DNA of 64,000 nt from an uncultured Actinomycetota bacterium (GTDB taxonomy: Bacteria; Actinomycetota; Actinomycetes; JAHEKZ01), in contig CAWHIJ010000003.1 of NCBI GenBank assembly GCA_963829525.1, positions 128,001 through 192,000 of the forward strand, given 5' to 3'. Below the pieces are notes generated by a model. That model was not told the origin of the DNA. It worked only from the letters and a program-made list of their open reading frames with translations, and ran no database searches. Numbering within the stretch: position 1 is the stretch's first letter; each line of letters begins with the position of its first letter. Shown here piece after piece: positions 27,047-43,094 of the stretch. The position numbers and the translations under genes were made by a program.

Positions 27047-27068
27047 CATATCTCGGCAGACTGCTCCC

Positions 27069-27773: not shown

Positions 27774-27828
27774 CGCGCCGGGCCCGGCGAGTGTCCCCCA
27801 GGAAGTCGGAAATCAGCGCCGAGTGTGG

Positions 27829-28602: not shown

Positions 28603-28627
28603 TCGATCACCCTGGCACGATCAGACC

Positions 28628-29767
28628 ATGACGACGACAGCGCGTGCCCGCGACCTCGGTATCGAGTTCGACGGAACCCCTGGACCGCACAACGCCATCA
28701 CCGATGTTCCCGGGGTCGAGATCGGCTTCACCACACTCGTTGAAGGCGAGGGTGAGCACGCTGTCCGTACCGGAGTCACGGCGGTCCTTCCGCGGGGCAA
28801 GGGCGGCGTCGGAGACCCGTGTCACGCCGGGATGTACTCGATGAACGGCAACGGCGAGCTGACAGGCTCTCACTGGATCGCCGAGACCGGGCTGCTGCAC
28901 CTGCCCATCGGTATCACCAACTCGCACGCCGTCGGCACCGTGCACCGAGGCATCATCGACTGGGTCATCAACGAGCACCCTCTGGTCGCACGCGAGTGGC
29001 TGTTGCCCTGCGTTGGCGAGACTTTCGACGGTGACCTAAACGACATCAACGGGCGCCATGTCGCCAGCGAGCACGCAGTCGCGGCGCTGCAGGCGGCCTC
29101 GGAAGGTCCTGTTGCCGAGGGCAATGTCGGAGGCGGCACCGGTATGAACTGCTACGCCTTCAAGGGTGGAACCGGAACCGCTTCACGGGTCATCAGGTAC
29201 GGGGACAGGTCGTACACGATGGGAGTGCTCACGCAGGCGAACTTCGGCGACCGCCATGAGCTGACGATCCGTGGCACCGCAGTCGGGACGGCGATTCCTG
29301 ACGACAACCCGTTTCGGGACGCACAGACGCGCCCGCCAGGTGGCGGCTCGGTCATTGTGATCGTCGCCACCGACGCGCCGCTGCTGCCGCAGCAGTGCCA
29401 AGCGCTTGCGCGCCGCGTTCCCCTCGGCCTGGCGCGAACCGGTACGACGGGATCGCACTTCAGCGGCGACATCTTCCTGGCGTTCTCAACCGGCAATCCT
29501 GGGGCGCTGCACGTCGGAGAGCTGGGCTCGCCTCCGGCCGGATCCTTAGAAACCGCCGCCTTCGTCCCGTGGGCGCAGATCGACCCGTTCTACGCAGCAA
29601 CGGTGCACGCGGTGGAGGAGTCTGTGATCAACGCACTCGTCGCTGCCGAGACGATGGTAGGTCGAAATGGCTTCCGGTCTCCCGCGCTTCCGCTGGACCG
29701 CGTCCAAGGGCTCATGGGCCTCGATACGCCTAGGGCGCGGAGCGAAATCCGCGCTGAGCGCGGCTAA
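28628..29767 (+). CDS. DmpA/P1-family (beta-peptidyl/D-) aminopeptidase
   Basis: PGPHNAITDVPGV, NGNGELTG, GNVGGGTGM..FKGGTGTASR, GGGSVIVIVATDAP, SGDIFLAFST. Confidence 0.9.
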   Translation: MTTTARARDLGIEFDGTPGPHNAITDVPGVEIGFTTLVEGEGEHAVRTGVTAVLPRGKGGVGDPCHAGMYSMNGNGELTGSHWIAETGLLHLPIGITNSHAVGTVHRGIIDWVINEHPLVAREWLLPCVGETFDGDLNDINGRHVASEHAVAALQAASEGPVAEGNVGGGTGMNCYAFKGGTGTASRVIRYGDRSYTMGVLTQANFGDRHELTIRGTAVGTAIPDDNPFRDAQTRPPGGGSVIVIVATDAPLLPQQCQALARRVPLGLARTGTTGSHFSGDIFLAFSTGNPGALHVGELGSPPAGSLETAAFVPWAQIDPFYAATVHAVEESVINALVAAETMVGRNGFRSPALPLDRVQGLMGLDTPRARSEIRAERG

Positions 29768-29788
29768 CGCTCCGCAAGTGCGGCCACC

Positions 29789-30865
29789 TCAGCGCGCATA
29801 GGCGGCCACAAGTGCCTCGCGCGTGACCTGAGTCTGGGCCTGGACCAGCGCGAACATCGCCTCACGTGCCCATCGCTGCTCGGGCGATGTCAGCAGCATC
29901 GCGCGTCCGGCCTGCACGGTGATCAGCGCGGAGGTCACGTCCTGCGCAAGCCGGGTGACCTCCGCCCTGATGGCGATCCGCTCATCCACCGCCTCCCCGG
30001 GCGCGACGTCGTCGACCAGCGCGTAGGCGCGCGCCCGCAGCCGCACGTACCGCTCCTGCCACTGTCGCGCAAGGCCCGACGCCGACTCCCAACGCCGGTG
30101 CTCGGCCGCCGCTGTCAGCGCGTTGAGTGCGGCTCGAGTGAGTCCGAAGACTGCTGGTGGCGCATTCGCCGTTCGTTGCAAATCTGCGGTCAACCACTCA
30201 CGTTTCGGTAGTACGCGAGCCACCTCGGCATCACTGACCGGCATGTGGTCCAGAACGGCTCCGACCGTCGATGTTCCCTGCATCGCGGCGAGCGGGAGTT
30301 CACCGGTGATCGTCAGCCCCTGGCGCTCGGACGCGGGCAGCAGCGCCTGCACGACCTCGCCGTCCGGCGTCTCAGCCATGAGCAATAGGACGTCGGCAAG
30401 GCCCCACGACGTGATCCAGTCGAGGCGACCACTCACCACAAATCCGTCACCCTGAAGAGTCGCAGTGACCGTCGGTGCGCCTGGACGGCGTAAGTGCGCG
30501 AAGGCGACTGCGCCGAGAAGGCCACCACTCTGCAGCCCTGCGGCCCAGCGCTCGCTCAGCGTCTCGTTCTGGGTGGTTCGAGCGGCCTCGGCCGGCGATC
30601 GATGTTGTGCCAGGACGAACCATAGGGCACCGGACGTCCCCGCAAGTTGCTCGTGCACCTCGCGCGTCCGAGCTGGCGACCAACTGCTGCCGAGCCCCGC
30701 CGAGAGGACACCGGCCGCGGCCAGTCGGGCGACATCGGAACGACTCACCCCTTCGCTCTCGAGCCGCTGCGCGTCCGGCGCATAGGCGCGCACCGCGTCT
30801 ACCGCCGCCGCCAGCTCTGCTGAATCGCTGACTCGCGCATCGGCACCGATCACGTCCTCGACCAC
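29789..30865 (-). CDS. Acyl-CoA dehydrogenase-like flavoprotein
   Basis: WFVLAQH, AVAFAHLRR, VSGRLDWITSWG, LAAMQGTST, QRWAREAMF. Start estimated. Confidence 0.7.
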   Translation of the reverse strand: MVEDVIGADARVSDSAELAAAVDAVRAYAPDAQRLESEGVSRSDVARLAAAGVLSAGLGSSWSPARTREVHEQLAGTSGALWFVLAQHRSPAEAARTTQNETLSERWAAGLQSGGLLGAVAFAHLRRPGAPTVTATLQGDGFVVSGRLDWITSWGLADVLLLMAETPDGEVVQALLPASERQGLTITGELPLAAMQGTSTVGAVLDHMPVSDAEVARVLPKREWLTADLQRTANAPPAVFGLTRAALNALTAAAEHRRWESASGLARQWQERYVRLRARAYALVDDVAPGEAVDERIAIRAEVTRLAQDVTSALITVQAGRAMLLTSPEQRWAREAMFALVQAQTQVTREALVAAYAR

Positions 30866-30887
30866 CTGACCACCGTACGGTGGGGCC

Positions 30888-32066
30888 GTGAGCACCGACC
30901 GCCTCGTCCCCCACTTGGCTGGGCTCGGCACCACGATCTTCGCCGAGATGTCCGCCCTTGCCGTCTCGACAGGGGCCATCAACCTCGGGCAGGGATTCCC
31001 CGACGTGGATGGCCCGCCGTCAGTCGCTGAGGCAGCCGTTGAGGCGATACGAAGCGGGCTCGGCAACCAATACCCGCCCGGCCCCGGGGTTCCTGTTCTA
31101 CGGCAAGCGATCGCCGCGCACCAAAAGGGGTGGTACGCACAGGCACTCGATCCCGACACCGAGGTGCTCGTGACTGCCGGAGCCACCGAGGCGATCGCCG
31201 CAGCGATGCTGGCGTTCATCGATGAAGGCGACGAGGTCATCGCGCTCGAGCCGTTCTACGACTCATACCGAGCAACAATCACCATGGCCCGCGGCCGCTG
31301 CGTTCCGGTGCGGCTGGAACCGCCGGACTTCCGCCTCGCCGCGGACCGGCTCCGCGCGGCCGTGACGGATCGGAGCAAAGTGATTCTGCTGAACTCCCCG
31401 CACAACCCAACGGGAGCGGTCTTGAGCCGCGCTGAGCTGGACGCTGTGGCACGGGTGGCGATCGACCACGACCTCCTCGTCGTCACCGACGAGGTCTACG
31501 AGCATCTCGCCTTCGACGAGCCCCACATCCCGATCGCCGAGCTCCCAGGAATGGCTGAGCGCACCGTCTCCATCTCGAGCGCGGGCAAGACGTTCTCGTT
31601 CACCGGGTGGAAGATCGGCTGGGTCACCGGTCCGGCTGAACTCGTCGCTGCCGTGCGCACCACTAAGCAATTCCTCACCTTCGTGAGCGGAGGTCCGTTC
31701 CAGTTCGCCATTGCGCACGCGCTCGAGAACGAGATGCCATGGGTCGAAGGTCTGCGAGAGTCGATGGCCGATCGCCGCGACCTGCTCAGTGACGGCCTGG
31801 CCGGTCTCGGTATGACCACCTACCGCCCTCGCGGCACGTACTTCGTCACCACCGACATCCGATCCGTCGGTTGGGATGACGCCCTCACCTTCTGCCGCGC
31901 CCTTCCCGAACGTGCCGGAGTTGTTGCCGTGCCTTGCTCTGTCTTCTACGAAAGCCCCGGCCCGGCCGAACGCGCCATGGTTCGCTGGACGTTCAGCAAG
32001 CAGGAGCACGTTCTCCAGGATGCGCTTGCACGCCTGGCGGCAGCCGACCTGTCGCCCACAAGCTGA
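30888..32066 (+). CDS. Class I/II PLP aminotransferase (DapC/N-succinyldiaminopimelate aminotransferase-like)
   Basis: TTIFAEMSALA...INLGQGFPD, NSPHNPTG, DEVYEHL, SSAGKTFSFTGWKIGW. Confidence 0.88.
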   Translation: MSTDRLVPHLAGLGTTIFAEMSALAVSTGAINLGQGFPDVDGPPSVAEAAVEAIRSGLGNQYPPGPGVPVLRQAIAAHQKGWYAQALDPDTEVLVTAGATEAIAAAMLAFIDEGDEVIALEPFYDSYRATITMARGRCVPVRLEPPDFRLAADRLRAAVTDRSKVILLNSPHNPTGAVLSRAELDAVARVAIDHDLLVVTDEVYEHLAFDEPHIPIAELPGMAERTVSISSAGKTFSFTGWKIGWVTGPAELVAAVRTTKQFLTFVSGGPFQFAIAHALENEMPWVEGLRESMADRRDLLSDGLAGLGMTTYRPRGTYFVTTDIRSVGWDDALTFCRALPERAGVVAVPCSVFYESPGPAERAMVRWTFSKQEHVLQDALARLAAADLSPTS

Positions 32067-32084
32067 GGAGGAGCGTGAGCGCCG

Positions 32085-33323
32085 TCACTCGATGTCCCGT
32101 TCGGCGTCGTCGATCCTGGCATCTGTCAGCACGCGCATCACGCCCAGCGTGCTGAGTGAGATGAGGGCGGCGAGCGCGAAGGTCACTCTGATTCCCCACC
32201 AGTTCGCCACCACTCCACCGAACAGGGAGCCGAGCGGCATCGTCCCCCAGGCCAAAAGGCGGTAGGCGCTGTTCACCCGTCCGAGCAACCGATCGGGCGT
32301 CACCCGCTGGCGCAGCGACACCATGACCACGTTGCCCAACACCACCGTGATTCCGGACGCCGCCAGGACGCCACCGATCACCCAAGGGTTAGCGGTCAGT
32401 GCAGGTACGCCGATGGCCAACGAGGTCACGACGATCATCAGGACCAAGGTCCGGGAACGACCCAGCTTCGTCTCGACCCGCTCAGCGATGAACGTCCCGA
32501 GGAAGGCACCAACGGCGGTTGCCGTGAGCAGGACGCCGTACTGCGGCTCGGAGAGACCCATGGGCGAGTTGACCCCGACGGCGTAAAGCACGAACACGGC
32601 GAAAGCGGCGCTGAAGGCGAAGTTGCCGAGCCCGGTCAGCAACGCCATCGCGCGTAGCACGCGATGTCCCCGGAGGAAGCGCAACCCTTCGGCAACGTCG
32701 GCGCGAATCGTCGTCGATCCGTCGTGTCCGGTTCGGAAGGAGCCACGCAGGAGCAGCAAGATCCCCGCTGCCACGAACCACACCCCCGCAGATCCCGCCA
32801 TGACCAGAGCGGCCCCCAAGGTCACCAGAAAGCCGCCCAGCGGTGGGCCGACGAACTCGTTCGCTGTCAGCTCGGCTGCATAGAGGCGCCCGTTGGCTCG
32901 CGAGAGCAGCCGCCGGTCCACCACCTGCGGAAGAATCGACTGCGCCGAGGTGTCATAGAGGGTCTCGGCCATGCCGATGCTGAAGGCCACGACGTAAAGC
33001 ACCACGATGGTCGCGACATCCATCGTGATGGCGATGGCCAGGAGTGCAAGCAGTGTCGCTCGCACGGCGTTTGCCGACAACATCACAATGCGGCGGTCCT
33101 GACGGTCGGAGACGGCGCCGGCATAGAGCGAGAAGACGAGCCATGGCAACCCACCTGCCACAGCAAGTCCGGCGATCAATGTCGGGTCGCGGGTGTACTG
33201 GATCGCGATCAACGGCAGTGCGACCTTGAAGACTCCGTCGGCAAGGTTCGACAGACCCGCAGATGACCAGAGCCGCCAGTAGTTGCTGCCAAGGGACTCA
33301 GGCATCGGCTCGTCAGCAGTCAC
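32085..33323 (-). CDS. MFS transporter (H+ antiporter/efflux type)
   Basis: About 12 hydrophobic segments, AGAVSDRQDRR, LRQRVTPDRLLGRVNS. Confidence 0.88.
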   Translation of the reverse strand: MTADEPMPESLGSNYWRLWSSAGLSNLADGVFKVALPLIAIQYTRDPTLIAGLAVAGGLPWLVFSLYAGAVSDRQDRRIVMLSANAVRATLLALLAIAITMDVATIVVLYVVAFSIGMAETLYDTSAQSILPQVVDRRLLSRANGRLYAAELTANEFVGPPLGGFLVTLGAALVMAGSAGVWFVAAGILLLLRGSFRTGHDGSTTIRADVAEGLRFLRGHRVLRAMALLTGLGNFAFSAAFAVFVLYAVGVNSPMGLSEPQYGVLLTATAVGAFLGTFIAERVETKLGRSRTLVLMIVVTSLAIGVPALTANPWVIGGVLAASGITVVLGNVVMVSLRQRVTPDRLLGRVNSAYRLLAWGTMPLGSLFGGVVANWWGIRVTFALAALISLSTLGVMRVLTDARIDDAERDIE

Positions 33324-33373
33324 GCGTCAGGCGTCCACACGCTCGACGTCCAGAAGTGACGCCGGATTGGGGG

Positions 33374-34978
33374 TTAGAACCACTTGGCGTAAAGCAGTTC
33401 CTCTGGAGTGACCACGCGGCCTTCAGGCGGGATACCGTGGAACTGCTCACCGATCGCCTTGGCCCACTTCGACCCGCGCGCCAACAGCTCACGGCTGTCG
33501 GTCTGCATCCGATCGCGGGTGACGAGGATGCCGAGATCGGCGCCGGGATAGCGGTACTCCCCCTCGCCGTAGACCTGCATGTAGTAGGCCTCGGCATCGT
33601 CGCTGACGTTGTGCCAGTCGGTCTCCTCGTGCACATAGGCGATCTTGCCGTCGTCACCCATCCGCCACAGCCCGCTGCGCGGGGCAGCTGTGATGAGCTC
33701 CACGTCATCGGTCACCTGCTTGAGTACGAGCTGGGTCCATCGGTCGAAGTCGCGCCAACGCTGCTGCACCGCGTCGATGTCGATCTCCCAGTCGACATCG
33801 GAGAACTCGAGCATATGGAAGAGAAACAGCGGGATGCCGCCGTACCTTGACGTGATCAGGTTGGTGAGCGGAGACGCGCCGGAGATGCGTGGGTTGATCT
33901 CACCCAGGTAGACATTTCCGTCATCATCGTCGACGAGAAAGTCGAGACAGAAGACACCCTTGTAGCCGACCTCGTAGAGCCGTTCGCCAAGCTTGCGTGC
34001 CATTCGACCTATCTGCTTGCGGACGTCCTCGGTGAACACACCGGGGAAGACATCGTTGCCGCACCAGCCACCGCGGTAGGGCGTGAGCTCGGGGAAGCCG
34101 GTGATGTCGGTTTGGATCGGTCCCACCAGCGTCCCGTGCCGTGTCGCGCAGGCCTCTACCGTGCCGGGGAAGTGATTGATCCGCTTCATCACCTTGAGCT
34201 CAGTGTCGGTGAGCACATCTTCGTTCTCGAGAAAGTCATCCTCGTTGGAAATGAAGAACGTGGTGCGCCCGGAGTCTCCGTAAGGCGTCTGCACGACGAG
34301 GTCGTCTCCCAAGTCGGCACTCTTGGCAAGTTTGCGCAGTTTCTTGTAGGTATTGGCCTTACCCATGACGTTGGGGACGCTGGCCACCCCGGCCTCGTTT
34401 CCGAGCTGAGTGGTGACGATTTTGGAGTCAATCTGCTCGCGCAGCTCACGGGGAGGAAGTGCGATCTCCAACCCCAGTTGATGCGCAAAGCTCTCGGTTT
34501 CTTCATCGAACATGACAAACAGCGCTTTGCCCGGTCCGTTCTTCTTGATGAAGTCAATGACCTCCTTGTTTCCGAGCAGGTATGAGTTCACCGACTCAAA
34601 CGACTCGAAGTCACGTGGACCGGCGTGCGCCGGGGAGAAGGACCTCGAATGTGAGCCGTGGAAGCTGTCGAAGTAGGTGATGTACCGGAAGGATCCGATC
34701 CACTCATCGATCCCCAGCAGGTTGTAGGCAGTCGGTGAGATGAAGTAGACCGGCGACGTGTTCTCACGGAAGTACTGGTAGATGTCGGAGAGGCTGCGCA
34801 ACACGGGGCCCTCAGGTTTGCGACGCGCCCGCGTTGCCTTGGCCTTTTGTGTCTTGGTCGGCTTCTTGGCCGATCCGGTACCAACGTTGCTCATGGTCTT
34901 ATCCAGTCGCCGTGGAGGGCGGCCAGCGCGCTTGTGCTTCTTGCGCTTGCCCTTCTTTTCCTTCTTCTTCTTCGCCAT
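33374..34978 (-). CDS. ATP-grasp ligase (family often auto-labelled 'biotin carboxylase') with Lys/Arg-rich N-terminal extension
   Basis: IDSKIVTT, VVQTPYGDSGRTTFF, GWCGND, FCLDFL...YLGEINPRISG (ATP-grasp ExNPR). No biotin carrier or carboxyltransferase gene nearby. Confidence 0.75.
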   Translation of the reverse strand: MAKKKKEKKGKRKKHKRAGRPPRRLDKTMSNVGTGSAKKPTKTQKAKATRARRKPEGPVLRSLSDIYQYFRENTSPVYFISPTAYNLLGIDEWIGSFRYITYFDSFHGSHSRSFSPAHAGPRDFESFESVNSYLLGNKEVIDFIKKNGPGKALFVMFDEETESFAHQLGLEIALPPRELREQIDSKIVTTQLGNEAGVASVPNVMGKANTYKKLRKLAKSADLGDDLVVQTPYGDSGRTTFFISNEDDFLENEDVLTDTELKVMKRINHFPGTVEACATRHGTLVGPIQTDITGFPELTPYRGGWCGNDVFPGVFTEDVRKQIGRMARKLGERLYEVGYKGVFCLDFLVDDDDGNVYLGEINPRISGASPLTNLITSRYGGIPLFLFHMLEFSDVDWEIDIDAVQQRWRDFDRWTQLVLKQVTDDVELITAAPRSGLWRMGDDGKIAYVHEETDWHNVSDDAEAYYMQVYGEGEYRYPGADLGILVTRDRMQTDSRELLARGSKWAKAIGEQFHGIPPEGRVVTPEELLYAKWF

Positions 34979-35021
34979 CCTGCCGGGACCCTATCCCTGT
35001 TCTGAACCCCGTGACAGGAGT

Positions 35022-36101
35022 TCACGCGATCAATACTGGAGGGTGATCTGGGACGTGATCCCCCGCCGGTTCGTACACCGGCGGCGGAACAGCCACCAGC
35101 GACCGACGGTGGCGCGAATCCTCCTCGAAGTTCTGCAGTGACAGCGTCCATCGATCGTCCGGCCAGCTGAGCTCGAGCATCCTGTGGTCGACGTCGTAGG
35201 CGGCCGTATAGACCGTCCCCCATGTGCTGGTCGCCGTCGAGCGATGAATCGGGGCAGTCAGGAACTGGTTGACGAGGTCTGGCACTCCGAGCACGGGGTT
35301 GGCCACTGCCTCTGCCATCGCCTGTTCGCGAGGAACAGTCGCACAGAACTCGGCATGCTCTGGCCACATGGTCGGACCCTGGCGGTTGGCTGCCGTGATC
35401 ACCCCGCTGACGATCGGCTCGCGGTCGGGGGCGACGTAGACAATTGCGCCGCGACCTGACGCATCCACCAAGGCGATGTTGTACGTCAGCTGGATCGGGA
35501 TCCGGTGCAGCATCGCCACGGCCTCATCGACGTTGGTGGCGAACTCGAGTAGGTAGCGGACCACCAGTCCGATGCCGAAACCGTCGCCGACGACGGGCCG
35601 GCCGCCGAACGCGATCGCCACCGAGAGGCCGTGTGCGTTGACGCCGTCCAGCGCACCCCAAAGGCAGTCGGTCATGGCCATGACGGGGGTCCCATGCCAG
35701 GACGAGGCCAGCACCGTGTTGTCGCACAGCAAGGGCGGGTAGTCGTAGTTGCGCAGCAGCACGTTGCGCTCGCGGTTATAGGTCAGCAGCGAGCAAGCAG
35801 CGAAGAGGGGCGGCGGCCGCCAATGGCTCAAGAACCTGGCCTCCAGGTCGCCGCCGCCAACCGCCTCCACCAGCCGGTCGTAGGTAGGGGCGAGCTCGGG
35901 CATGTAGGTGCGCAGCATCTGGGCGCACTCGGCGTAGCGCGGACGCGCGGCCTCACCCTGGTTCAGGTACCACCGTCGGTAGGCCGGCCACGCGGCCGAG
36001 AAGAACTCGAGCAGCCGTCCGTCCAGGGCGTCCCCGGCGTCGATCGACCGGAAGGTCGTGTCGAGCTCGACGACCTCCGGCGAGACGTGCGGGTGATGCA
36101 T
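35022..36101 (-). CDS. C45-family autoproteolytic acyltransferase/hydrolase (Ntn), copy 1
   Basis: PPLFAA|CSLL candidate cleavage Cys, LLRNYDY, DCLWGALDGVN, GDGFGIGLVVRYLLE, WGTVYTA. Confidence 0.8.
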   Translation of the reverse strand: MHHPHVSPEVVELDTTFRSIDAGDALDGRLLEFFSAAWPAYRRWYLNQGEAARPRYAECAQMLRTYMPELAPTYDRLVEAVGGGDLEARFLSHWRPPPLFAACSLLTYNRERNVLLRNYDYPPLLCDNTVLASSWHGTPVMAMTDCLWGALDGVNAHGLSVAIAFGGRPVVGDGFGIGLVVRYLLEFATNVDEAVAMLHRIPIQLTYNIALVDASGRGAIVYVAPDREPIVSGVITAANRQGPTMWPEHAEFCATVPREQAMAEAVANPVLGVPDLVNQFLTAPIHRSTATSTWGTVYTAAYDVDHRMLELSWPDDRWTLSLQNFEEDSRHRRSLVAVPPPVYEPAGDHVPDHPPVLIA

Positions 36102-36309
36102 TCGAGCCCACCTAGAGACGGAGCAGCAGAACGTACGCCCGAGTATGAGTGATCCGGAGGGAAAATCGACAGCAAACGACACCAAATTGAGCCGAAGTCG
36201 CGACATTCCCGCAGGCAACCCCAGGATCAGCAAATGCCGCGAAACGCCCACGGGTGGCTGTGCGGGGCCACTCCGGGTCACTCGGACGCCCCCGACTAGC
36301 ATCCCCCGG

Positions 36310-37746
36310 GTGGAGTTGCATGAGTACGCCCAATACGACGCCCTGGGGTTGGCTGAACTCGTCGCCGACGGCCAGGTCAGCCCGCGTGAGCTCGCAGCCT
36401 GCGCCGTAGCCGCCGTCGAGCGGGTCGACGGCACCCTGGGGGCGGTGGTCGAGACATACGCTGACCGGGCCGAATCCATCGGCGACGAAATCCCCGCCGA
36501 GCCCTTCTTCGGTGTCCCCACCATGGTCAAGGACCTCTTCCACGGCGAGGCCGGCAAACACTGCGGCAATGGCAGCCGCCTCAGCGAGGACTGGGTGGTC
36601 TCTCTCGACACCGCCTTCTACGACCGGATCCGACGCAGCGGCCTGATCAACGTGGGACGCACCACAACGTCGGAGTTCGGGATCATGGGTACCACCGAGA
36701 CTCTCGCTGCTGGGCTGACCTGCACCCCGTGGAGCTCAAACCACTCAGCTGGCGGCTCCAGCGGCGGGGCGGCAGCCGTCGTCGGCGCTGGGATCGTGCC
36801 GGTGGCCTCAGCCAGCGACGGAGGCGGCTCCATCCGCATCCCCGCGGCCTCCTGCGGAGTCGTGGGGCTGAAGACCTCGCGCGGAAGAGTTACCTGGGGA
36901 CCGCAGATCGCCGAGGCGCTCGCCGGATGGGCGGTGCACTTCATGGTGAGCCGCTCGGTCCGCGACACCGCAGCGATGCTGGACGCCTTGGGTGGCCCCG
37001 CGTATGGCGACCCCTTCGTCATACCTGGTCCAACGCGCCCCTTCCTAGAAGAGGTGGGGAGCTCGGTCGAACCGCTGCGGATCGCCTACTGGAGCACGCC
37101 TTGGTCGGGGCAGGACCCCGACCCCGAAGTTGCTGCTGCCACCGAGTCGACGGCGCAGTTGCTTGAGTCGCTCGGGCACCACGTCGAGCTGGCCACACCC
37201 CAGTTCGACTGGGAACCGTTCCTGATCGCGATGACTGACGTTTGGGCGGCCGACAACGCGCACACCGTCGATGGGCTTGCCGCCTTCCTGGGAAAGACCG
37301 TCAACGCAGACACGCTCGAAGGTTCGACGCTCGCGGCAGTCGAGTACGGGCGCACCATTTCGGCCGGGCGCCTGCTCGATGCCATGGGCCAGGCGAACCA
37401 CCTCGCACGCATCATGGGCTGGTTCTTCGCGTCCTACGACGTCCTCCTGACCCCAACCCTCGGACGCCTACCTGCGCCGCTGAAGATGTACGACCCTTCC
37501 GAGCCCGTGGAGCTGCGGCGAATGTTCGAGACCTGGTCACCGTGGGAGTCGTTCCTACCGGTGTTCAACGCGACCGGCCAGCCGGCCATCAGCCTGCCGC
37601 TGCACATGAGCGACACCGGACTCCCGATCGGCATGCAGCTCGTCGGCGGATTCGGCCAGGAGTCGTTGCTGCTGCGTCTGTCGGCACAGCTGGAAGAGGC
37701 GCTGCCATGGGCCGGACGGATCCCACCGATCCACGTCAGCCGCTGA
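36310..37746 (+). CDS. Amidase (amidase-signature family)
   Basis: GVPTMVKDL, GGSSGG, ASDGGGSIRIPAASCGVVGLK, FNATGQPAISLP. Confidence 0.92.
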   Translation: MELHEYAQYDALGLAELVADGQVSPRELAACAVAAVERVDGTLGAVVETYADRAESIGDEIPAEPFFGVPTMVKDLFHGEAGKHCGNGSRLSEDWVVSLDTAFYDRIRRSGLINVGRTTTSEFGIMGTTETLAAGLTCTPWSSNHSAGGSSGGAAAVVGAGIVPVASASDGGGSIRIPAASCGVVGLKTSRGRVTWGPQIAEALAGWAVHFMVSRSVRDTAAMLDALGGPAYGDPFVIPGPTRPFLEEVGSSVEPLRIAYWSTPWSGQDPDPEVAAATESTAQLLESLGHHVELATPQFDWEPFLIAMTDVWAADNAHTVDGLAAFLGKTVNADTLEGSTLAAVEYGRTISAGRLLDAMGQANHLARIMGWFFASYDVLLTPTLGRLPAPLKMYDPSEPVELRRMFETWSPWESFLPVFNATGQPAISLPLHMSDTGLPIGMQLVGGFGQESLLLRLSAQLEEALPWAGRIPPIHVSR

Positions 37747-37761
37747 CCCCCACCTCATCGT

Positions 37762-38016
37762 TCAGCCCTGCCGCCACCTTGACCAGGCGGCCTGCTTGGT
37801 CGTCCCGGCCACGTCGGCCACCTGCGACCAAGACCCGCTCTCGGCGAGCGTGCGCGCCGAGAGTCCAAGGCACTGGCCGACCTCTTCGCTGACGCGGAGC
37901 AACTCCTCGAATGCCCTCCGGTCTGACCGCGTGGCCAGCTCTCGGAGTGCAGTCACAATGAGGTCACCGACCTCGTCGACCGTCTGGGTGCTGAAGTGCT
38001 CGCGACCGTGCATCAT
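37762..38016 (-). CDS. Small helix-turn-helix protein (84 aa), putative repressor
   Basis: C-terminal SWSQVADVAGTTKQAAWSRW HTH pattern. ATG at 38016. Confidence 0.75.
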   Translation of the reverse strand: MMHGREHFSTQTVDEVGDLIVTALRELATRSDRRAFEELLRVSEEVGQCLGLSARTLAESGSWSQVADVAGTTKQAAWSRWRQG

Positions 38017-38038
38017 GTGCCCACTGTCCACTGCGGCG

Positions 38039-38065
38039 TTGTCCTGGACAAGTTGTCCGGGACAA
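38039..38065. promoter_or_regulatory. Two tandem 13-bp palindromes, putative operator
   Basis: TTGTCC-T-GGACAA (38039-38051) and TTGTCC-G-GGACAA (38053-38065), just upstream of the HTH gene. Confidence 0.6.
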
Positions 38066-38086
38066 GTGGTGACTCGACAGCGTGGC

Positions 38087-39358
38087 CTATCGAAGCCGCA
38101 CCTGCACCTCGTCGTCCGACGAGTCGAAGGTGCGACGCCAGGTCCTACCAGGCCAGCGGTAGATGACCTCCCCGTCGTTCGGCCGGTAGTCCGCCGTGTA
38201 GAGCGTTCCAAAGCCTCCCTCGAAGTCGGTGCTCCGTAAGGCCGGGGACAGAAAGGTCGCCGCGGCCGTATCCGCGGCGCAACCATCGCGGTCAAGACCG
38301 CGCAGGACGTCTTGGCGCTCCACGCTCCGAAACCGTCGCGCCAGCTCGGGGCGGTCAGGAACCAAGCCTCGATGGTTCGTAGCCAATGGCATGTCGAAGT
38401 ACTCAGGGTCACGACCTGGCGCCACAAACACCGTGGCCGCCACGCCTGTGCGGTCGGTCATGGTGAGGTTGTAGCTGGCAGCCACAGGCACACGGCCAAT
38501 CACCTGACGCGCCTCTTCAACGGTGTCGCACATCTCCAGCAAGTAGCGCACCACAAGTGGGATGCCGAACCCGTCGCCGGTGCCGGGCAGCCCACCAAAC
38601 GTCAACGAGACAGCCAGCCCACTGTCGTTCATCCCGTCCAACAGACCCCACAGGCAGTCGCTGGTTCCGATCACGCGCCGATCACCCCATTGGCTCGACA
38701 GGCTCACCCCTTCGAACAGCATCGGGTCGTAGTCGTAGTTCCGCAGCAGGGCGCGCTCGCTGCCATTCACGACCAGTTGCGAGCACCCGGGCGCGAACGC
38801 CGGCGGGTTCCACAACGAGAGCATCCGGGCGACGTCACTGTCGTCGTCGGTCAACGTGACGAGGTGCTCCCATGTGGGCAACAGCTCCGGCATGTACCGC
38901 CTGATGGCATCCTGAGACTGCGACAACGAGGGACGCCGGTCCCAGCCCTCGGACGCGTACCACGACAGGTAGGACGCCCGCGTCGCCTCGAGCAGGGCAC
39001 TCCATGCCGGTCCAGGACGCTGTTCGTGGAGACCCAACATCGTGAGACTGACCGGGGCCGGCATCGAAACGGGCTCCACCATCGATGCGCGCCGCCAGTC
39101 GACCGCAGTCCCGCAGGTGGCCGAAGCCGGTGTTGCCCGAACCGGACGGGTGGCATAGGACGCGGACGACGAGGACCAGGTGGAGGCGCCCAGGCACCGG
39201 CCTAGATCACCCATCGACCGTCCGAGGTGCTCCAACGTCCGTGCCAGCTGAGCGCCGTCGTGGTCGGCACGTCGACCAAGTTCGTCGCAGGCCAGCGCGA
39301 GATGGTGTGAAAGCTCCGATGTCGTCAGGGATGCGAGTGAGCTATGCGTCATTGTCAT
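38087..39358 (-). CDS. C45-family autoproteolytic acyltransferase/hydrolase, copy 2, with N-terminal extra helical segment
   Basis: PAFAPG|CSQL, LLRNYDY, DCLWGLLDGMN, GDGFGIPLVVRYLLE, FGTLYTA. About 90 extra N-terminal residues if the ATG at 39358 is used. Confidence 0.78.
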   Translation of the reverse strand: MTMTHSSLASLTTSELSHHLALACDELGRRADHDGAQLARTLEHLGRSMGDLGRCLGASTWSSSSASYATRPVRATPASATCGTAVDWRRASMVEPVSMPAPVSLTMLGLHEQRPGPAWSALLEATRASYLSWYASEGWDRRPSLSQSQDAIRRYMPELLPTWEHLVTLTDDDSDVARMLSLWNPPAFAPGCSQLVVNGSERALLRNYDYDPMLFEGVSLSSQWGDRRVIGTSDCLWGLLDGMNDSGLAVSLTFGGLPGTGDGFGIPLVVRYLLEMCDTVEEARQVIGRVPVAASYNLTMTDRTGVAATVFVAPGRDPEYFDMPLATNHRGLVPDRPELARRFRSVERQDVLRGLDRDGCAADTAAATFLSPALRSTDFEGGFGTLYTADYRPNDGEVIYRWPGRTWRRTFDSSDDEVQVRLR

Positions 39359-39360
39359 GC

Positions 39361-39407
39361 CGTCAAGTAAACCTTGACGCCGCCCCTTCGTCAAGTTTAC
39401 CTTGACG
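39361..39407 (-). promoter_or_regulatory. Tandem palindromic operator overlapping a leaderless sigma70-type promoter
   Basis: CGTCAAG-TAAAC-CTTGACG (39361-39379) and CGTCAAG-TTTAC-CTTGACG (39389-39407). Minus strand reads TTGACG-N17-TTTACT-N7-ATG. Confidence 0.75.
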
Positions 39408-39437
39408 CCGCAATCCGCCGGCTCAGCACGAACGTAA

Positions 39438-39464
39438 GGTTTCGGGCGGTCCCAAGCCGGGTAC
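39438..39464 (+). promoter_or_regulatory. SigB/SigF-type promoter
   Basis: GGTTT-N16-GGGTAC upstream of the ORF at 39519. Confidence 0.7.
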
Positions 39465-39518
39465 TAGCCGGATGAAGGGACGAGAAGGGCGGCACCGGCA
39501 TGATCGCCGCAGTCGAGG

Positions 39519-39944
39519 ATGGAGACAATGACGCGCATGCAGGAGGAGCTGGACAATGCCCAAAGCCTGTCCGTTCCATGGCTGCTGCCGGAAGGCTCTG
39601 AAAGCGTGACCCTCGCGCGGCATGCTGCGCGTCGCCACCTCACCGCGCTCGGCGTCGCTCCAGAGATCATCGATACCGCCGAGCTGCTCGTAAGTGAACT
39701 CACCGCCAACGTGATCAAGCATGCTGGGGGTCGTCCCACCCTACGAGTGATGCGGCACGATGACGTGATCCGAATCGAAGTGGGCGACTCCCGACCAGAT
39801 CAGTTTCCGGTCGCACGCGACCTTGACACCGAGGCCCCATCCGGACGCGGGCTGCTTCTGGTCACGACTCTCGCCACGTCCTGGGGTTACGAACTCGATG
39901 GCGATGGGAAGTTCACGTGGGCCGAGCTCGAGATGCCTCAATAG
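39519..39944 (+). CDS. HATPase_c-like ATP-binding protein (RsbW/anti-sigma regulatory factor-like)
   Basis: AELLVSELTANVIKHA, RIEVGD, SGRGLLLV, GKFTWAEL. Confidence 0.85.
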   Translation: METMTRMQEELDNAQSLSVPWLLPEGSESVTLARHAARRHLTALGVAPEIIDTAELLVSELTANVIKHAGGRPTLRVMRHDDVIRIEVGDSRPDQFPVARDLDTEAPSGRGLLLVTTLATSWGYELDGDGKFTWAELEMPQ

Positions 39945-39972
39945 CGACGGCACTTGCTGCCTCCACGGCTGG

Positions 39973-40692
39973 TCAGCTCTCCAACGTCATCTGGTCACGA
40001 AGGTGCGCCAAGGTTCGCGTGAGCAGACGTGAGACGTGCATCTGCGAGATGCCGAGCTCGTCGGCGATCTCAGTCTGTGTCATGTTGCGGAAGAAGCGCA
40101 TCTCCAAGAGCCTGCTCTCCCTTTCTGGAAGCATGGCCATCAGCGGCCTAAGAGCGTGGCGGTCCTCTACCCGCTCGAACGACGGGTCGACACTCCCCAC
40201 AACGGCTGCGAGACTCAAGGCGTCTTCGTCAGGGTCGACCAGTGGGTCGATGCTCTGCGTGTTGTAGGCCCGGCCGACCTCCAACCCCTGGAGCACATCG
40301 TCCTCGCTGACCGACAGCCGCTCAGCCAGCTCGGACACCGTCGGTGAGCGGTGCAGCTCGTGGGTGAGGTCGTCTACCGCTTTCGTCAGCGCCATCCGAA
40401 GCTCTTGCAGTTGGCGCGGTACGCGCAGCGCCCAACCCTTGTCCCGGAAGTGTCGCTTGATTTCGCCCAGCACGGTTGGTGTCGCAAAGGTCGCGAACTC
40501 GATCTCACGTGACGCGTCGAACCGGTCTGCGGCCTTCACCAGCGCCAGATAGGCAACCTGCGTGAGGTCCTCCAGCGACTCGCCTCGGCCGATGAAGCGA
40601 CGAGCCAGGTGTTCTGCCAGGCCCATGTGCGACTGGACGAGCAGATCGCGGGCCTGCGTTCGGTCTGACATTGCCGTCATCTCCGTCGGCAC
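39973..40692 (-). CDS. sigF: SigB/SigF/SigG-family RNA polymerase sigma factor
   Basis: LEDLTQVA..LVKAADRFD, FATFATPTVLGEIKRHFRD..WALRVPR, MTQTEIADELGISQMHVSRLL. Confidence 0.9.
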   Translation of the reverse strand: MPTEMTAMSDRTQARDLLVQSHMGLAEHLARRFIGRGESLEDLTQVAYLALVKAADRFDASREIEFATFATPTVLGEIKRHFRDKGWALRVPRQLQELRMALTKAVDDLTHELHRSPTVSELAERLSVSEDDVLQGLEVGRAYNTQSIDPLVDPDEDALSLAAVVGSVDPSFERVEDRHALRPLMAMLPERESRLLEMRFFRNMTQTEIADELGISQMHVSRLLTRTLAHLRDQMTLES

Positions 40693-40702
40693 CTCAGCAC
40701 CT

Positions 40703-41125
40703 TCAGAGCGCGGCGTCGAGGACGGGGCCTCGACTGCGGGTCACAGAGATTACCTGTCCGCGCTCGTCGGTCTCGCTGGAGACCTCGTTGGCGAGGGCCC
40801 GCAGGATGCTCCACGCAAAACCCTCGTCGGGAGCCGTGGATGCCGTCGTGACGGCGGCGGTCAGCCGAAATCGAATCGTGTCGTCGGTCGCCTCGATCTC
40901 GCAGAGCAGTGTCCCCTCGGCGCCGGAAGTCAGAAGGACTGACGCCGCCTCGTCGATCAGGATACGGAGGTCGTCGATGTCGTCGAGCGAGAATTCCAGC
41001 CGGCTCGCGATCACGCCGGCGGCGGCCCGCAGCACGGCGAGATGGTCGGCCTGGGCCGGAACCTCGATCGTCACCATGCCCGGAGCGCCACCTCGCCCGA
41101 TGTCTCGCCCCTGGGTGTCACTCAT
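40703..41125 (-). CDS. Anti-sigma factor (RsbW/UsfX-like)
   Basis: VPAQADHLAVLR...FSLDDIDDLRILIDEA...FAWSILRAL, directly upstream of the sigma factor. Confidence 0.82.
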   Translation of the reverse strand: MSDTQGRDIGRGGAPGMVTIEVPAQADHLAVLRAAAGVIASRLEFSLDDIDDLRILIDEAASVLLTSGAEGTLLCEIEATDDTIRFRLTAAVTTASTAPDEGFAWSILRALANEVSSETDERGQVISVTRSRGPVLDAAL

Positions 41126-41468
41126 CGCCGGCGACCGATTCGACAGCAGCTAACTCGTCGTGGTGAAGGTCGAACACGGTGTCCATGCCGGTGAGGTGCA
41201 GGATCTTACGAATAGCTCCGTCGGGCACTACAAAGGCCAGTGCCACATCGGCCTCACGGCAGCGACGTTGACAGCCCACCAGCTCACCGATGCCTGTCGA
41301 GTCGATGAAGCCTACGCCGCGTAAGTCGACCACGATGCCGGCGTCCGCCGCGGTCTCGGCAGCGATCAGACCCTCACGGAACTGCTCCGAGGTGGCGAGG
41401 TCGACCTCGCCCTGGGGCGCAACTACGACTGTAGTTCCGACATTTCTCTGCCAGATCTTCAAGTTCAC
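41118..41468 (-). CDS. STAS-domain anti-anti-sigma factor (RsbV-like)
   Basis: GEVDLATS, VDLRGVGFIDSTGIG (phospho-Ser motif), LHLTGM. Confidence 0.9.
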   Translation of the reverse strand: MNLKIWQRNVGTTVVVAPQGEVDLATSEQFREGLIAAETAADAGIVVDLRGVGFIDSTGIGELVGCQRRCREADVALAFVVPDGAIRKILHLTGMDTVFDLHHDELAAVESVAGDE

Positions 41469-41477
41469 AGTAGGACC

Positions 41478-41504
41478 CTACCCGGCGTGTGAAGACGGCA
41501 AACC
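41478..41504 (-). promoter_or_regulatory. SigB/SigF-type promoter of the STAS-anti-sigma-sigma operon
   Basis: Minus strand GGTTT-N16-GGGTAG, 9 nt before GTG 41468. Confidence 0.72.
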
Positions 41505-41514
41505 TGCCTCCGGA

Positions 41515-41541
41515 GGTTTTCTTCCGAGCCTGCGCGGGTAC
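41515..41541 (+). promoter_or_regulatory. SigB/SigF-type promoter
   Basis: GGTTT-N16-GGGTAC upstream of the 43-aa ORF. Confidence 0.72.
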
Positions 41542-41573
41542 AAGCGCCTTACAACTTCCCGAGGAGGACCGCA

Positions 41574-41705
41574 ATGGCTTTGTTCCGCACCGTCTCCCGC
41601 ATTTCCATGGTCGTGAGCGCCGCGCTCGGCGCCTGGCGGCTGTGGCAGACCTGGCGCCAACGCCACCAGACGCCTACATCACCCCTGGCCACCTCCGACG
41701 TTTGA
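41574..41705 (+). CDS. 43-aa small protein (not in ORF track)
   Basis: MALFRTVSRISMVVSAALGAWRLWQTWRQRHQTPTSPLATSDV. RBS GAGGAGG at 41561-41567 and its own promoter. Confidence 0.65.
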   Translation: MALFRTVSRISMVVSAALGAWRLWQTWRQRHQTPTSPLATSDV

Positions 41706-41725
41706 TCCAGGCATCCTGCGGGTAA
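41699..41725 (+). promoter_or_regulatory. SigB/SigF-type promoter
   Basis: CGTTT-N16-GGGTAA upstream of the GPGG protein. Confidence 0.65.
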
Positions 41726-41786
41726 TCCCTGCCTGACATTGATTCTCAAAAAAGAGCGTCTGAAGAAACCGTCCTTGGGAGACCTC

Positions 41787-41930
41787 ATGGAGATGCTGTT
41801 GTGGATCGTGGCCGTCATCTTGGTAGTGAGCGGCATCGTGGCCCTCGTCCGAGGTTCTGTTCTTTGGGGAGTCGTCCTGATCATCGTCGGACTGCTCGTC
41901 GGCCCCGGTGGTGTCAGCCTCTTCACCTAG
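41787..41930 (+). CDS. GPGG-motif small membrane protein (47 aa)
   Basis: MEMLLWIVAVILVVSGIVALVRGSVLWGVVLIIVGLLVGPGGVSLFT. RBS GGGAG. Confidence 0.85.
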   Translation: MEMLLWIVAVILVVSGIVALVRGSVLWGVVLIIVGLLVGPGGVSLFT

Positions 41931-42049
41931 CCCACCGCACTTTCACCGAAGAAAACGATCATCGAGGACAGGCACAGCACGAACGACTGACTGAGCAGCA
42001 CAACTGAACAGCACAACAGCCAGGTCACCGCAAGGAAAGAGGGCGTCTG

Positions 42050-43090
42050 ATGCAATACGGAGCAGTTCTCGACGACGAGCAGCTGGCGTCGTCCGCTCTG
42101 CCACCACCGCGTGGACCACTCACTGATGCTCTCTTCGACCTGCTGACGCGTGACGCGCATCGCCCGCGGTTGGTGCTGCCACGTGTCGAGGACGGGGACG
42201 ACGACCCGCTCTACGGCGACGACTCCGCTCTCGCTCTCTACGCCCTTTACGAGCTGCACTACCGCGGCTTCGACGGCGTCGACGTGGCATGGGAGTGGCA
42301 GCCAGACTTGCTGGCCTGGCGAGGAGAGCTTGAGCAAGCGGTGGTCGCCAGACTGCACGAAGAGGTTGGAGCGCTACCGGATCGACCGCAGATTCCCGAC
42401 GCACTCCACGCGCTCATGGAGGATGCCGACGGTCCGAGTCTCTCTCGGTTTCTGCTGGAGACCGGCACCGTTGACCAGTTCCGCGAAATGGCGAAACACC
42501 GCTCCATCTACCAACTCAAAGAAGCCGACCCACATACCTGGATCATCCCCCGCCTCACCGGCCATCCGAAGGCTGCTGCTGTCGAAATCCAGTCAGACGA
42601 GTACGGCGACGGGGTCGCCCGCGACATGCACCAGAACCTCTTCGGGCTCACCATGAGTGAGCTCGGCCTAGATCCTTCGTACCACGCCTACCTTCCCGCT
42701 ATCCCGGGTTGGACGCTGGCCGGAGTCAACGCCGTCAGTCTCTTCGGCCTGCACCGAAGGTGGCTCGGCGCTGCCGTGGGACACCTGGCCATGTTCGAGA
42801 TGACCTCGGTCGAGCCGATGGGCGCCAGCGCTGCGGCGCTGCGGCGGCACGAGTTCGGCGCCGACGCGCGCCACTTCTACTCGGTCCACGTCGTTGCCGA
42901 TGCGCACCACCAAACCGTCGCCGCCGACCAGCTCGCCAAGGGGCTCGTGGACCAGCATCCCGACCTTGCCCACGACGTGCTCTTCGGCGCAGCCGCTGTC
43001 ATGGCGTTGGAAGGCGAAGCTGCGAGGCGGATGATGGCGGCCTGGGAGCGCGACCAGTCGTCGCTGCGTCCCGAGCAATCCGCGTTCTAG
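42050..43090 (+). CDS. Iron-containing redox enzyme (heme-oxygenase-like) family protein
   Basis: LYELHYRGF, HRSIYQLKEADPH, EIQSDEYGDG, FEMTS, HVVADAHH. Confidence 0.82.
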   Translation: MQYGAVLDDEQLASSALPPPRGPLTDALFDLLTRDAHRPRLVLPRVEDGDDDPLYGDDSALALYALYELHYRGFDGVDVAWEWQPDLLAWRGELEQAVVARLHEEVGALPDRPQIPDALHALMEDADGPSLSRFLLETGTVDQFREMAKHRSIYQLKEADPHTWIIPRLTGHPKAAAVEIQSDEYGDGVARDMHQNLFGLTMSELGLDPSYHAYLPAIPGWTLAGVNAVSLFGLHRRWLGAAVGHLAMFEMTSVEPMGASAAALRRHEFGADARHFYSVHVVADAHHQTVAADQLAKGLVDQHPDLAHDVLFGAAAVMALEGEAARRMMAAWERDQSSLRPEQSAF

Positions 43091-43094
43091 CCTT

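Follow-up and report, generated by a model that had tools for sequence, protein, structure and literature searches.

A conserved triad around an ATP-grasp ligase

We analysed a stretch of 64,000 nucleotides (nt) from an uncultured actinobacterium (hereafter the window, C3:128001-192000 of the source genome), which carries between positions 32,085 and 39,407 a gene for an ATP-grasp ligase, set beside genes for C45-family Ntn hydrolases, an amidase and a transporter. The source is a metagenome-assembled genome (MAG) from the Actinomycetes, 2.96 Mb in three contigs; the window DNA is high in GC (0.61-0.67), and the closest database proteins carry the names 'Actinomycetes bacterium' or 'Candidatus Nanopelagicales'. 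Genes were called from a listing of open reading frames (ORFs) and from family scans, and their starts were set from a reading of the DNA and from comparison with orthologues. The central features are:

35022-36101, minus strand: C45a, a Cys-Ntn hydrolase/acyltransferase proenzyme of 359 amino acids (aa), family NF040521
33374-34978, minus strand: ATP-grasp ligase of 534 aa, PRK06524/GabtS family (NF005096), automatically named 'biotin carboxylase'
36310-37746, plus strand: NylA-like amidase-signature (AS) amidase of 478 aa (PF01425), divergent from C45a
36102-36309, no strand: divergent intergenic control region of 208 nt between C45a and the amidase

The conservation of this arrangement was determined in species-representative contigs from 185,579 genomes, by tblastn with the window proteins, and the best 80 loci of 492 relatives were kept. 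Relatives of the ligase are numerous: they make up 7193 protein clusters (E <= 1e-5) among 8000 scored candidates, and 492 of 507 pattern matches in the species genomes encode one. The gene is present in all 19 other genomes of the window organism's own family, and there are strong matches in three more families of the class. Actinomycetota-type loci, from Actinomycetes, Acidimicrobiales, Thermoleophilia and Gaiella, account for 53 of the best 80. Wherever at least 3.5 kb of upstream sequence was available, these loci contained both a C45 gene (45/45) and an amidase gene (45/45); in the other eight, each miss falls at a contig end. In 49 of 51 loci the gene immediately upstream of the ATP-grasp gene, in the same orientation, is that for the C45 protein. 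A first-pass annotation of this DNA had suggested a neighbourhood check of the ATP-grasp/C45 linkage, and when this was run the linkage proved to be conserved, both in these loci and in the plasmid operons described below.

Most Actinomycetota loci contain the triad alone. The core of the system is three genes, i.e. those for the amidase, C45a and the ATP-grasp ligase, and the transporter, aminotransferase, DmpA-type peptidase, second C45 protein (C45b) and small ORF of the window are lineage-specific additions. Neither the six-gene unit put forward in the first-pass annotation nor an operon-like system covering the whole 32-39 kb stretch survived this comparison, since only the amidase, C45a and ATP-grasp genes are conserved together.

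The 27 non-Actinomycetota loci, which are mostly proteobacterial, have different partners. An AS amidase gene was found in none of them (0/27) and a C45 gene in four, and 21 of the 27 have a member of a single CN-hydrolase family within 10 kb of the ATP-grasp gene, in several arrangements; in the Alphaproteobacteria the distance is 0.1-9 kb and the CN-hydrolase gene is mostly on the opposite strand. The Actinomycetota loci have an AS amidase and most of the others a CN-hydrolase, and two unrelated superfamilies thus fill the amidase role. Loss of C45 from the Alphaproteobacteria was considered and ruled out, as four of the five genomes without a C45 gene beside the window-type ligase have one elsewhere; in at least two of these Alphaproteobacteria, the C45 gene located elsewhere stands beside a sister-clade ATP-grasp gene.

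Three further observations concern the organisation of these loci. In eight alphaproteobacterial loci (L082 and seven others) the ATP-grasp gene is divergent beside rpsB-tsf-pyrH, with a GGDEF-EAL gene before the CN-hydrolase gene; this neighbourhood probably reflects lineage synteny. In a gammaproteobacterial locus, the ATP-grasp gene is followed by an amino-acid permease gene. The gammaproteobacterial C45 gene at L061:7460-8688 is found as two ORFs (253 and 156 aa), probably through a MAG frameshift or because the gene is broken.

The core proteins and their relatives

The ATP-grasp protein scores 687.7 bits against NF005096, just over the cut-off of 684, and matches model positions 13-482 of 493. 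All 11 aligned sequences share residues D318, E332, N334 and R336 without exception, and likewise the loop YGDSGRTT; in a profile alignment the core residues fall on the E-x-N-x-R motif that pyruvate carboxylase and biotin carboxylase possess, and mean column identity across phyla is 69%. In the AlphaFold2 (AF2) model (mean pLDDT 73), the top Foldseek matches are biotin carboxylase and PurK (E ~1e-13 to 1e-14, TM 0.43-0.59); judging from the model, this fold is generic for the branch of ATP-grasp enzymes to which the ligase belongs. Against the accC model TIGR00514 the protein scores 29.3 bits (21.7 bits in the genome scan), where the cut-off is 626.5. The R-I-Q-V-E-H stretch of the carboxylases aligns to R-I-S-G-A-S, in which S338, G339, A340 and S341 are invariant, and an Ala stands at the position of the catalytic Glu, i.e. 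the base, of biotin carboxylase, on the residue numbering that we presume for that enzyme. The genome's real fusion of biotin carboxylase (BC) to biotin carboxyl carrier protein (BCCP) is encoded at C3:2630579-2632330, 2.5 Mb from the locus, and none of the eight Biotin_lipoyl matches in the genome lies inside the window. The accC score, the Ala at the base position and the location of BC-BCCP elsewhere all indicate that the ATP-grasp protein is not a biotin carboxylase. The first-pass annotation had argued the same from the missing biotin carrier, and its view was borne out: there is no biotinyl domain in the window, and the protein fails on the accC cut-off, the catalytic Glu and the carrier alike.

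The first 28 residues of the ligase (34895-34978) form a Lys/Arg-rich N-terminal tail, MAKKKKEKKGKRKKHKR..., with an alternative start at 34894. Similar basic tails are present in close relatives (open frames of 512-649 aa, with a longer tail in P0005), and distant relatives are without one. Six N-extended representatives (P0122, P0124, P0125, P0136, P0154 and P0264) contained no extra Pfam domain, and a protein atlas search with the ligase returned only its own 'biotin carboxylase' clusters.

Both C45 proteins exceed the NF040521 cut-off of 85 bits, with 132.2 for C45a and 132.9 for C45b. In C45a, C103-S104, R117-N118-Y119-D120 and N155 are invariant in all 16 aligned sequences, and Cys103, the predicted nucleophile, is preceded by Ala or Gly in each of them; C45b also keeps the Cys nucleophile and the R-N-Y-D block. 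The top structural match of the AF2 model of C45a (pLDDT 89) is isopenicillin N acyltransferase (2x1c_A, E 3.3e-13, TM 0.65), with further matches to NAAA, acid ceramidase and bile salt hydrolases. A sequence search of the PDB with C45a gave chance lectin matches only (E 0.01).

We predicted the complex between ligase residues 30-506 and C45a, using alignments built in this analysis. The median ipSAE was 0.74, against 0.43 for the best of three controls; in the benchmark, 58 of 80 solved complexes attain this mark, as do 2 of 110 mismatched pairs. Between runs, 85% or more of the contacts agreed, and the pLDDT of the partner was at least 90. On the ligase side the predicted interface comprises the conserved C-terminal tail (489-506), residues 338-339 of the catalytic loop and residues 447-456; on the C45a side it comprises residues 83-100, 122-125 and 293 and the tail 338-359. 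The prediction supports, but does not show, binding of C45a by the ligase. To our knowledge there is no solved complex of the ATP-grasp/C45 type.

The amidase scores 251.5 bits against PF01425 (cut-off 27), and its translation contains the motifs VKD, GGSSGG and GGSIR, which we take to supply the Ser-cisSer-Lys triad. Its best PDB match is the 6-aminohexanoate-cyclic-dimer hydrolase NylA (3a2p, E 1.7e-74). None of the curated amidase models reaches its cut-off, the best being NF005899 with 319 bits against 418.

The relative of the ligase that gives most information about its chemistry is mycobacterial. Over 434 aa the window enzyme shares 49% identity with the N-terminal half of P0276, a 906-aa protein of Mycobacterium tuberculosis with the database name 'biotin carboxylase-like protein'; its name, organism and domain order suggest that P0276 is Rv1722 and Rv1723 in one ORF. 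Rv1722 is an ATP-grasp protein once annotated as a carboxylase, and an April 2026 bioRxiv preprint identifies it as the GABA-trehalose synthetase GabtS: with gamma-aminobutyric acid (GABA), trehalose and ATP, the purified protein gave 6'-GABA-trehalose, whose bond is that of an ester and not of an amide (10.64898/2026.04.15.718621). The preprint describes no hydrolase partners ('hydrolase', 'esterase' and 'operon' have 0 occurrences each in its text) and, covering mycobacteria only, leaves open how GABA-trehalose is broken down (10.64898/2026.04.15.718621). A second preprint describes Rv1723 as a serine hydrolase of the beta-lactamase-like type whose beta-lactamase activity is poor. The first-pass annotation had known of no characterised product and had assumed amide linkage; both points are overtaken, since Rv1722 belongs to the same family and its reported product, GABA-trehalose, is an ester (10.64898/2026.04.15.718621). 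Our literature search, whose coverage left most subscription journals outside, returned nothing else on a module of ligase, C45 protein and amidase.

A quick maximum-likelihood tree of the ATP-grasp family (39 rows) places the window enzyme inside a clade of 26 rows with 99% support, and the plasmid ATP-grasp clade is the sister of this clade. Among the long homologues we found nine fused forms (five of them rechecked with Pfam), of which seven carry a PF00144 domain, one an AS amidase domain and one no recognised extra domain. In PDB searches the fused domains are closest to NylB (E 4.6e-69 for P0271, E 1.2e-49 for P0276), and the amidase half of the amidase-ATP-grasp fusion is closest to GatA (E 4.9e-50).

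A tblastn search of plasmids gave 33 records with ATP-grasp homologues (35-47% identity), and we inspected the operons of 10, eight of which are annotated. A 'C45 family peptidase' stands beside the 'biotin carboxylase' in six of the eight; the other two have, respectively, insertion sequence (IS) elements after the ATP-grasp gene and an unlisted gap. The annotated records include a CN-hydrolase in four cases, an AS amidase in two and a large pyridoxal phosphate (PLP) enzyme in six, and the three PLP enzymes compared with Pfam are Orn/Lys/Arg decarboxylases. By blastp the plasmid C45 proteins are 38-46% identical to those of the window, the plasmid CN-hydrolases are 50-63% identical among themselves, and over 481 aa the window amidase shares 45% identity with that of Rhizobium leguminosarum. 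In one alphaproteobacterial genome (L096, G045:C8:156450-160304) the gene for the large Orn/Lys/Arg decarboxylase has the C45 gene immediately after it, with no ATP-grasp gene between them in the 3.9 kb available.

Genes of GABA metabolism recur around the sister-clade operons. In Roseobacter ponti gabT lies beside the operon, and in Chondrinema it is accompanied by the gene for succinate-semialdehyde dehydrogenase (gabD). In Roseateles and Shinella the neighbouring genes encode 5-guanidino-2-oxopentanoate decarboxylase, aldehyde dehydrogenase, an agmatinase-family protein and D-amino-acid dehydrogenase; by annotation they belong to the catabolism of arginine and guanidino compounds, which leads to GABA. 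The R. leguminosarum operon has peptide-type ABC importers and a Glu-family dehydrogenase as neighbours. In the Actinomycetota, class-III aminotransferase genes flank the triad in eight loci; they are heterogeneous, and one is GABA-AT-like (455 bits, cut-off 506). At two loci (L034:11447-12634 and L054:11447-12634) an ornithine-aminotransferase-like gene directly follows the ATP-grasp gene (TIGR01885, 494.7 bits, cut-off 378). The window's own genome encodes both GAD and GabT, each over its cut-off.

Genes and probable control elements added around the core

The lineage-specific features of the window and their neighbours are:

32085-33323, minus strand: MFS_3 (EntS-like) transporter of 412 aa (PF05977)
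37762-38016, minus strand: small ORF of 84 aa, with no significant family match
38087-39358, minus strand: C45b, paralogue of C45a, 423 aa (NF040521), with an N-terminal extension of ~90 aa
28583-29767, plus strand: DmpA/BapA-type S58 aminopeptidase (PF03576, 366 bits)
30888-32066, plus strand: class I/II aminotransferase (213 bits in the family scan; NF005855, 576 bits, cut-off 553)
29789-31240: acyl-CoA dehydrogenase (ACAD)-like ORF (Acyl-CoA_dh_M, E 1.9e-4)

The layout is as the first-pass annotation had given it, i.e. C45a, ATP-grasp and MFS_3 genes in this order with spacings of 43 nt (34979-35021) and 50 nt (33324-33373), a divergent amidase gene and a second C45 gene. Its list of adjoining genes is clear for DmpA and the aminotransferase, but the acyl-CoA-dehydrogenase-like match is weak, at 22 bits against a cut-off of 33.3. 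The transporter matches PF05977 with E 6.4e-31 and TIGR00900 with 189.5 bits, under its cut-off. The PDB matches of the DmpA-type protein are DmpA itself (1b65, 2.4e-91) and beta-peptidyl aminopeptidase (BapA; 3n2w, 2e-80). In the best 80 loci, MFS_3 gave tblastn matches in nine, all of them close relatives, and the MFS, aminotransferase, ACAD-like, DmpA and SDR genes are confined to the window's own family.

C45b shares 36% identity with C45a (E 1e-62). Together with the small ORF it was found in three of the best 80 loci (L013, L019 and L027), which are also the only ones to match the small ORF by tblastn. The N-terminal extension, which has no family match, is present in the orthologues from L013 (431 aa) and L027 (425 aa), and its comparison with the 84-aa ORF showed no relationship (E 0.66). 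The first-pass annotation had called the 84-aa product a helix-turn-helix (HTH) protein. This label is unproven, as the Pfam search gave no significant HTH match: E was 0.22 for HTH_AsnC-type, the best, and 0.23 for Myb_DNA-bind_8.

Two exact copies of the palindrome CGTCAAG-N5-CTTGACG (39361-39379 and 39389-39407) lie 2 nt upstream of the C45b start, and the pair is kept directly upstream of C45b in L013, L019 and L027. Conservation at the same place in three loci makes it a credible operator, and the pair is likely to be that of C45b. A second palindrome, TTGTCCnGGACAA, occurs in two exact copies (38039-38051 and 38053-38065) upstream of the small ORF. Each pair is unique as an exact match in the 2.96 Mb genome. 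Of the dedicated operators that the first-pass annotation had described, both pairs therefore exist, but only the C45b pair is kept in the related loci; the TTGTCCnGGACAA pair was not found in L013, L019 and L027. No Rfam match was found across window positions 27000-41000, including the 208-nt control region (E <= 0.1), the promoter scan, which also included this region, found 0 sigma-70-like sites, and terminator-like sites numbered 5 where 3.8 were expected.

The remaining genes of the window are housekeeping genes, i.e. purine synthesis, DnaK/DnaJ/ClpB and a sigma-factor partner-switching set. The last of these adjoins the locus at 39519-44204 and includes a HATPase_c_2 anti-sigma-like ORF (39519-39944, plus strand), a sigma-70 family factor (39973-40692, minus strand) and a SpoIIE-type phosphatase (43095-44204, minus strand). 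At 7992-9833 (minus strand) a 613-aa ORF contains Lyase_1 and ADSL_C domains (adenylosuccinate lyase) and, after them, a SAICAR synthetase domain. This ORF could be a PurB-PurC fusion or else a pair of genes with no stop between them. The same weak accC score (23.1 bits) was obtained at G000:C1:435-692 and G000:C3:139663-139920 (window 11663-11920). The latter is the ATP-grasp domain of the window's purD and the former lies at a contig end, and the two may represent an assembly duplication.

A possible make-and-break module for omega-amino acids

We propose, at about even confidence, that the triad makes, and breaks again, a conjugate whose amino acid is of the omega type, for example GABA. 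The proposal builds on family membership, synteny, the fusions, the intact catalytic residues and the predicted complex, and from these we infer an acyl donor, an acceptor, a direction of flux and a purpose. NylA, NylB, DmpA and BapA cleave acyl bonds of amino acids with a non-alpha amino group. This Nyl/DmpA-type hydrolase theme, the GABA genes of the sister operons, the class-III aminotransferases and the GAD and GabT of the genome together suggest that the acyl group comes from an omega- or beta-amino acid resembling GABA. The ATP-grasp ligase would convert GABA, or a closely similar omega- or beta-amino acid, into an acyl phosphate by activating its carboxylate, and then couple the acyl group to a hydroxyl or amino acceptor. 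C45a, translated just upstream, would sit on the ligase near its catalytic loop, as the model predicts. C45a and the NylA-like amidase would re-cleave the omega-aminoacyl bond or trim related amides, and in this way the cell could bank, and later release, the carbon and nitrogen of the omega-amino acid. The window lineage would then have gained the MFS transporter, the beta-aminopeptidase and the aminotransferase, and a second C45 protein under its own palindromic operator.

Several points weigh against this proposal. The mycobacterial pair branches outside the window clade and outside the sister of that clade (branch length 1.51, 89% support), and therefore both substrates may differ; the equation of the N-terminal half of P0276 with Rv1722 (P71980) is itself drawn from name and organism. 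Purified Rv1722 works without a partner protein (10.64898/2026.04.15.718621). C45, AS and CN enzymes are typically amidases, and the sole known product of the family is an ester. The score of the predicted complex is the model's own confidence, on alignments of this analysis. No GABA gene adjoins the window triad, and the neighbouring aminotransferase is of class I/II, not class III. The uptake and catabolic genes on the plasmids fit the breakdown of an imported compound better than storage.

This last point leads to an alternative that we consider unlikely, though worth keeping in view, in which the locus serves to catabolise an amide or opine-like compound taken up from outside: C45a and the amidase would release an omega-amino acid or polyamine, with the ATP-grasp enzyme performing a protective ligation by analogy with PuuA in the putrescine pathway and C45a a PuuD-like step. 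Sister-clade operons with peptide-type ABC importers or amino-acid permeases, with Orn/Lys/Arg decarboxylases, Glu-family dehydrogenases and gabT/gabD, and with MurR or Lrp regulators are consistent with such a route, as is the permease gene of the gammaproteobacterial locus. However, most Actinomycetota triads have no importer, decarboxylase or dehydrogenase, the window transporter is EntS-like MFS_3, a group whose characterised members are exporters, and Rv1722, the one characterised relative, is biosynthetic. A biosynthetic enzyme could be carrying out the same reaction as in mycobacteria, forming GABA-trehalose or another GABA sugar ester with C45a and the amidase acting as esterases. DmpA-type and Ntn enzymes can hydrolyse esters, and family membership, the 49% identity to P0276 and the presence of GAD and GabT agree with this idea, but we think it rather improbable, as the window enzyme lies in a separate clade and the mycobacterial-type partner is a NylB-like serine hydrolase, not a C45 protein or AS amidase. 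We are equally doubtful of a reading in which the ATP-grasp ligase and C45a together make amide-linked GABA-type conjugates or short oligomers, i.e. natural gamma-peptides resembling nylon oligomers, with the NylA-like, NylB-like and DmpA/BapA-like hydrolases as dedicated breakdown enzymes. If it were true, these peptides would be the long-sought natural substrates for the ancestors of the nylon-oligomer hydrolases, and omega-aminoacyl storage or signalling metabolism would be widespread, extending over 492 species representatives.

The predicted contact of C45a with ligase residues 338-339 could also be read as that of an amidotransferase-like complex, in which C45a or the amidase frees ammonia or an amine for the acyl phosphate of the ligase and a primary amide is formed. 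C45 proteins have an N-terminal Cys, like class II glutaminases, AS and CN domains act as glutaminases in GatCAB and NadE, and one fusion joins the ATP-grasp domain to a half that is closest to GatA (4.9e-50). We nevertheless give this reading little credence: the amidase gene is divergent, the alphaproteobacterial CN-hydrolase gene is 0.1-9 kb away and usually on the opposite strand, there is no evidence of a tunnel, and Rv1722 works alone according to the preprint. The fold matches to biotin carboxylase and PurK would suit a biotin-independent, PurK-type carboxylase acting on a urea or amide nitrogen, followed by an allophanate-hydrolase-like amidase. AS and CN enzymes do hydrolyse ureido compounds, and some related operons carry genes of the agmatinase/arginase family, whose enzymes release urea. 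The accC score of 29 bits against 626.5, the invariant Ala at the BC base position and the assignment of the characterised relative as a carboxylate ligase make such a carboxylase very improbable, and it would leave C45a without a role. Least credible of all is the tagging of a protein or peptide, with the ligase adding a tag and C45a removing it. There are RimK-type precedents, and the Lys/Arg-rich N-terminal tail and very strong conservation of the ligase (69% mean column identity) could be taken in this sense, but the basic tail is absent from most relatives, neither a small ORF nor a target gene is conserved in the loci, and the genes found in related operons serve the transport and catabolism of small molecules. 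The system that makes and removes a compound, as envisaged in the first-pass annotation, thus remains in part: its ligase and hydrolase logic fits the fusions and Rv1722, whereas its protein tag is unsupported.

The proposed make-and-break module bears on a large family of ATP-grasp proteins, nearly all of them mislabelled 'biotin carboxylase', for which the first biochemical assignment is that of the 2026 preprint. Most of the family is set differently from the mycobacterial members, as part of a fixed triad whose other members are a C45 Ntn hydrolase and an amidase, and exchange of the hydrolase partner has involved four superfamilies (AS, CN, C45 and NylB-like). The ligase and C45a may form a complex. 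The triad supplies candidate breakdown enzymes and a lead substrate class, and it shows relatives of the nylon-oligomer hydrolases in a natural setting.

Comparison with known systems brings out what is particular to the module. GabtS is of the same ATP-grasp family, was likewise named '(biotin) carboxylase' automatically and activates a carboxylate with ATP; it also has a hydrolase attached, in that P0276 has a NylB-like C-terminal half. However, the window enzyme is in a separate clade, its partners are a C45 protein and a NylA-like amidase where the mycobacterial partner is a hydrolase of beta-lactamase fold, and it is predicted to be in complex with C45a. AccC and PurK share the three-domain ATP-grasp fold and the E-x-N-x-R motif with the window ligase, but this has no TIGR00514-level score, an Ala instead of the catalytic Glu of AccC and no carrier protein at the locus. 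NylA and NylB both cleave omega-aminoacyl amides, and the window amidase is closest to NylA and the fused domains to NylB; the homologues described here are, however, natural ones in genomes with no link to nylon, and with 319 bits against 418 for NF005899 the window amidase does not count as equivalog to any named one. Isopenicillin N acyltransferase, the best structural match to C45a, resembles it in its proenzyme architecture and in a Cys following Gly or Ala at about position 103, but the two are 12% identical, C45a is bacterial and has an ATP-grasp partner, and no acyl-CoA-forming enzyme is conserved beside it. PuuA and PuuD, and glutathionylspermidine synthetase/amidase, each combine an ATP-dependent ligase and a Cys-dependent amidase for one and the same amine conjugate. 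The families involved, a GS-like ligase with an amidase of the class I GATase or CHAP type, differ from those of the triad, and the likeness is one of functional analogy only.

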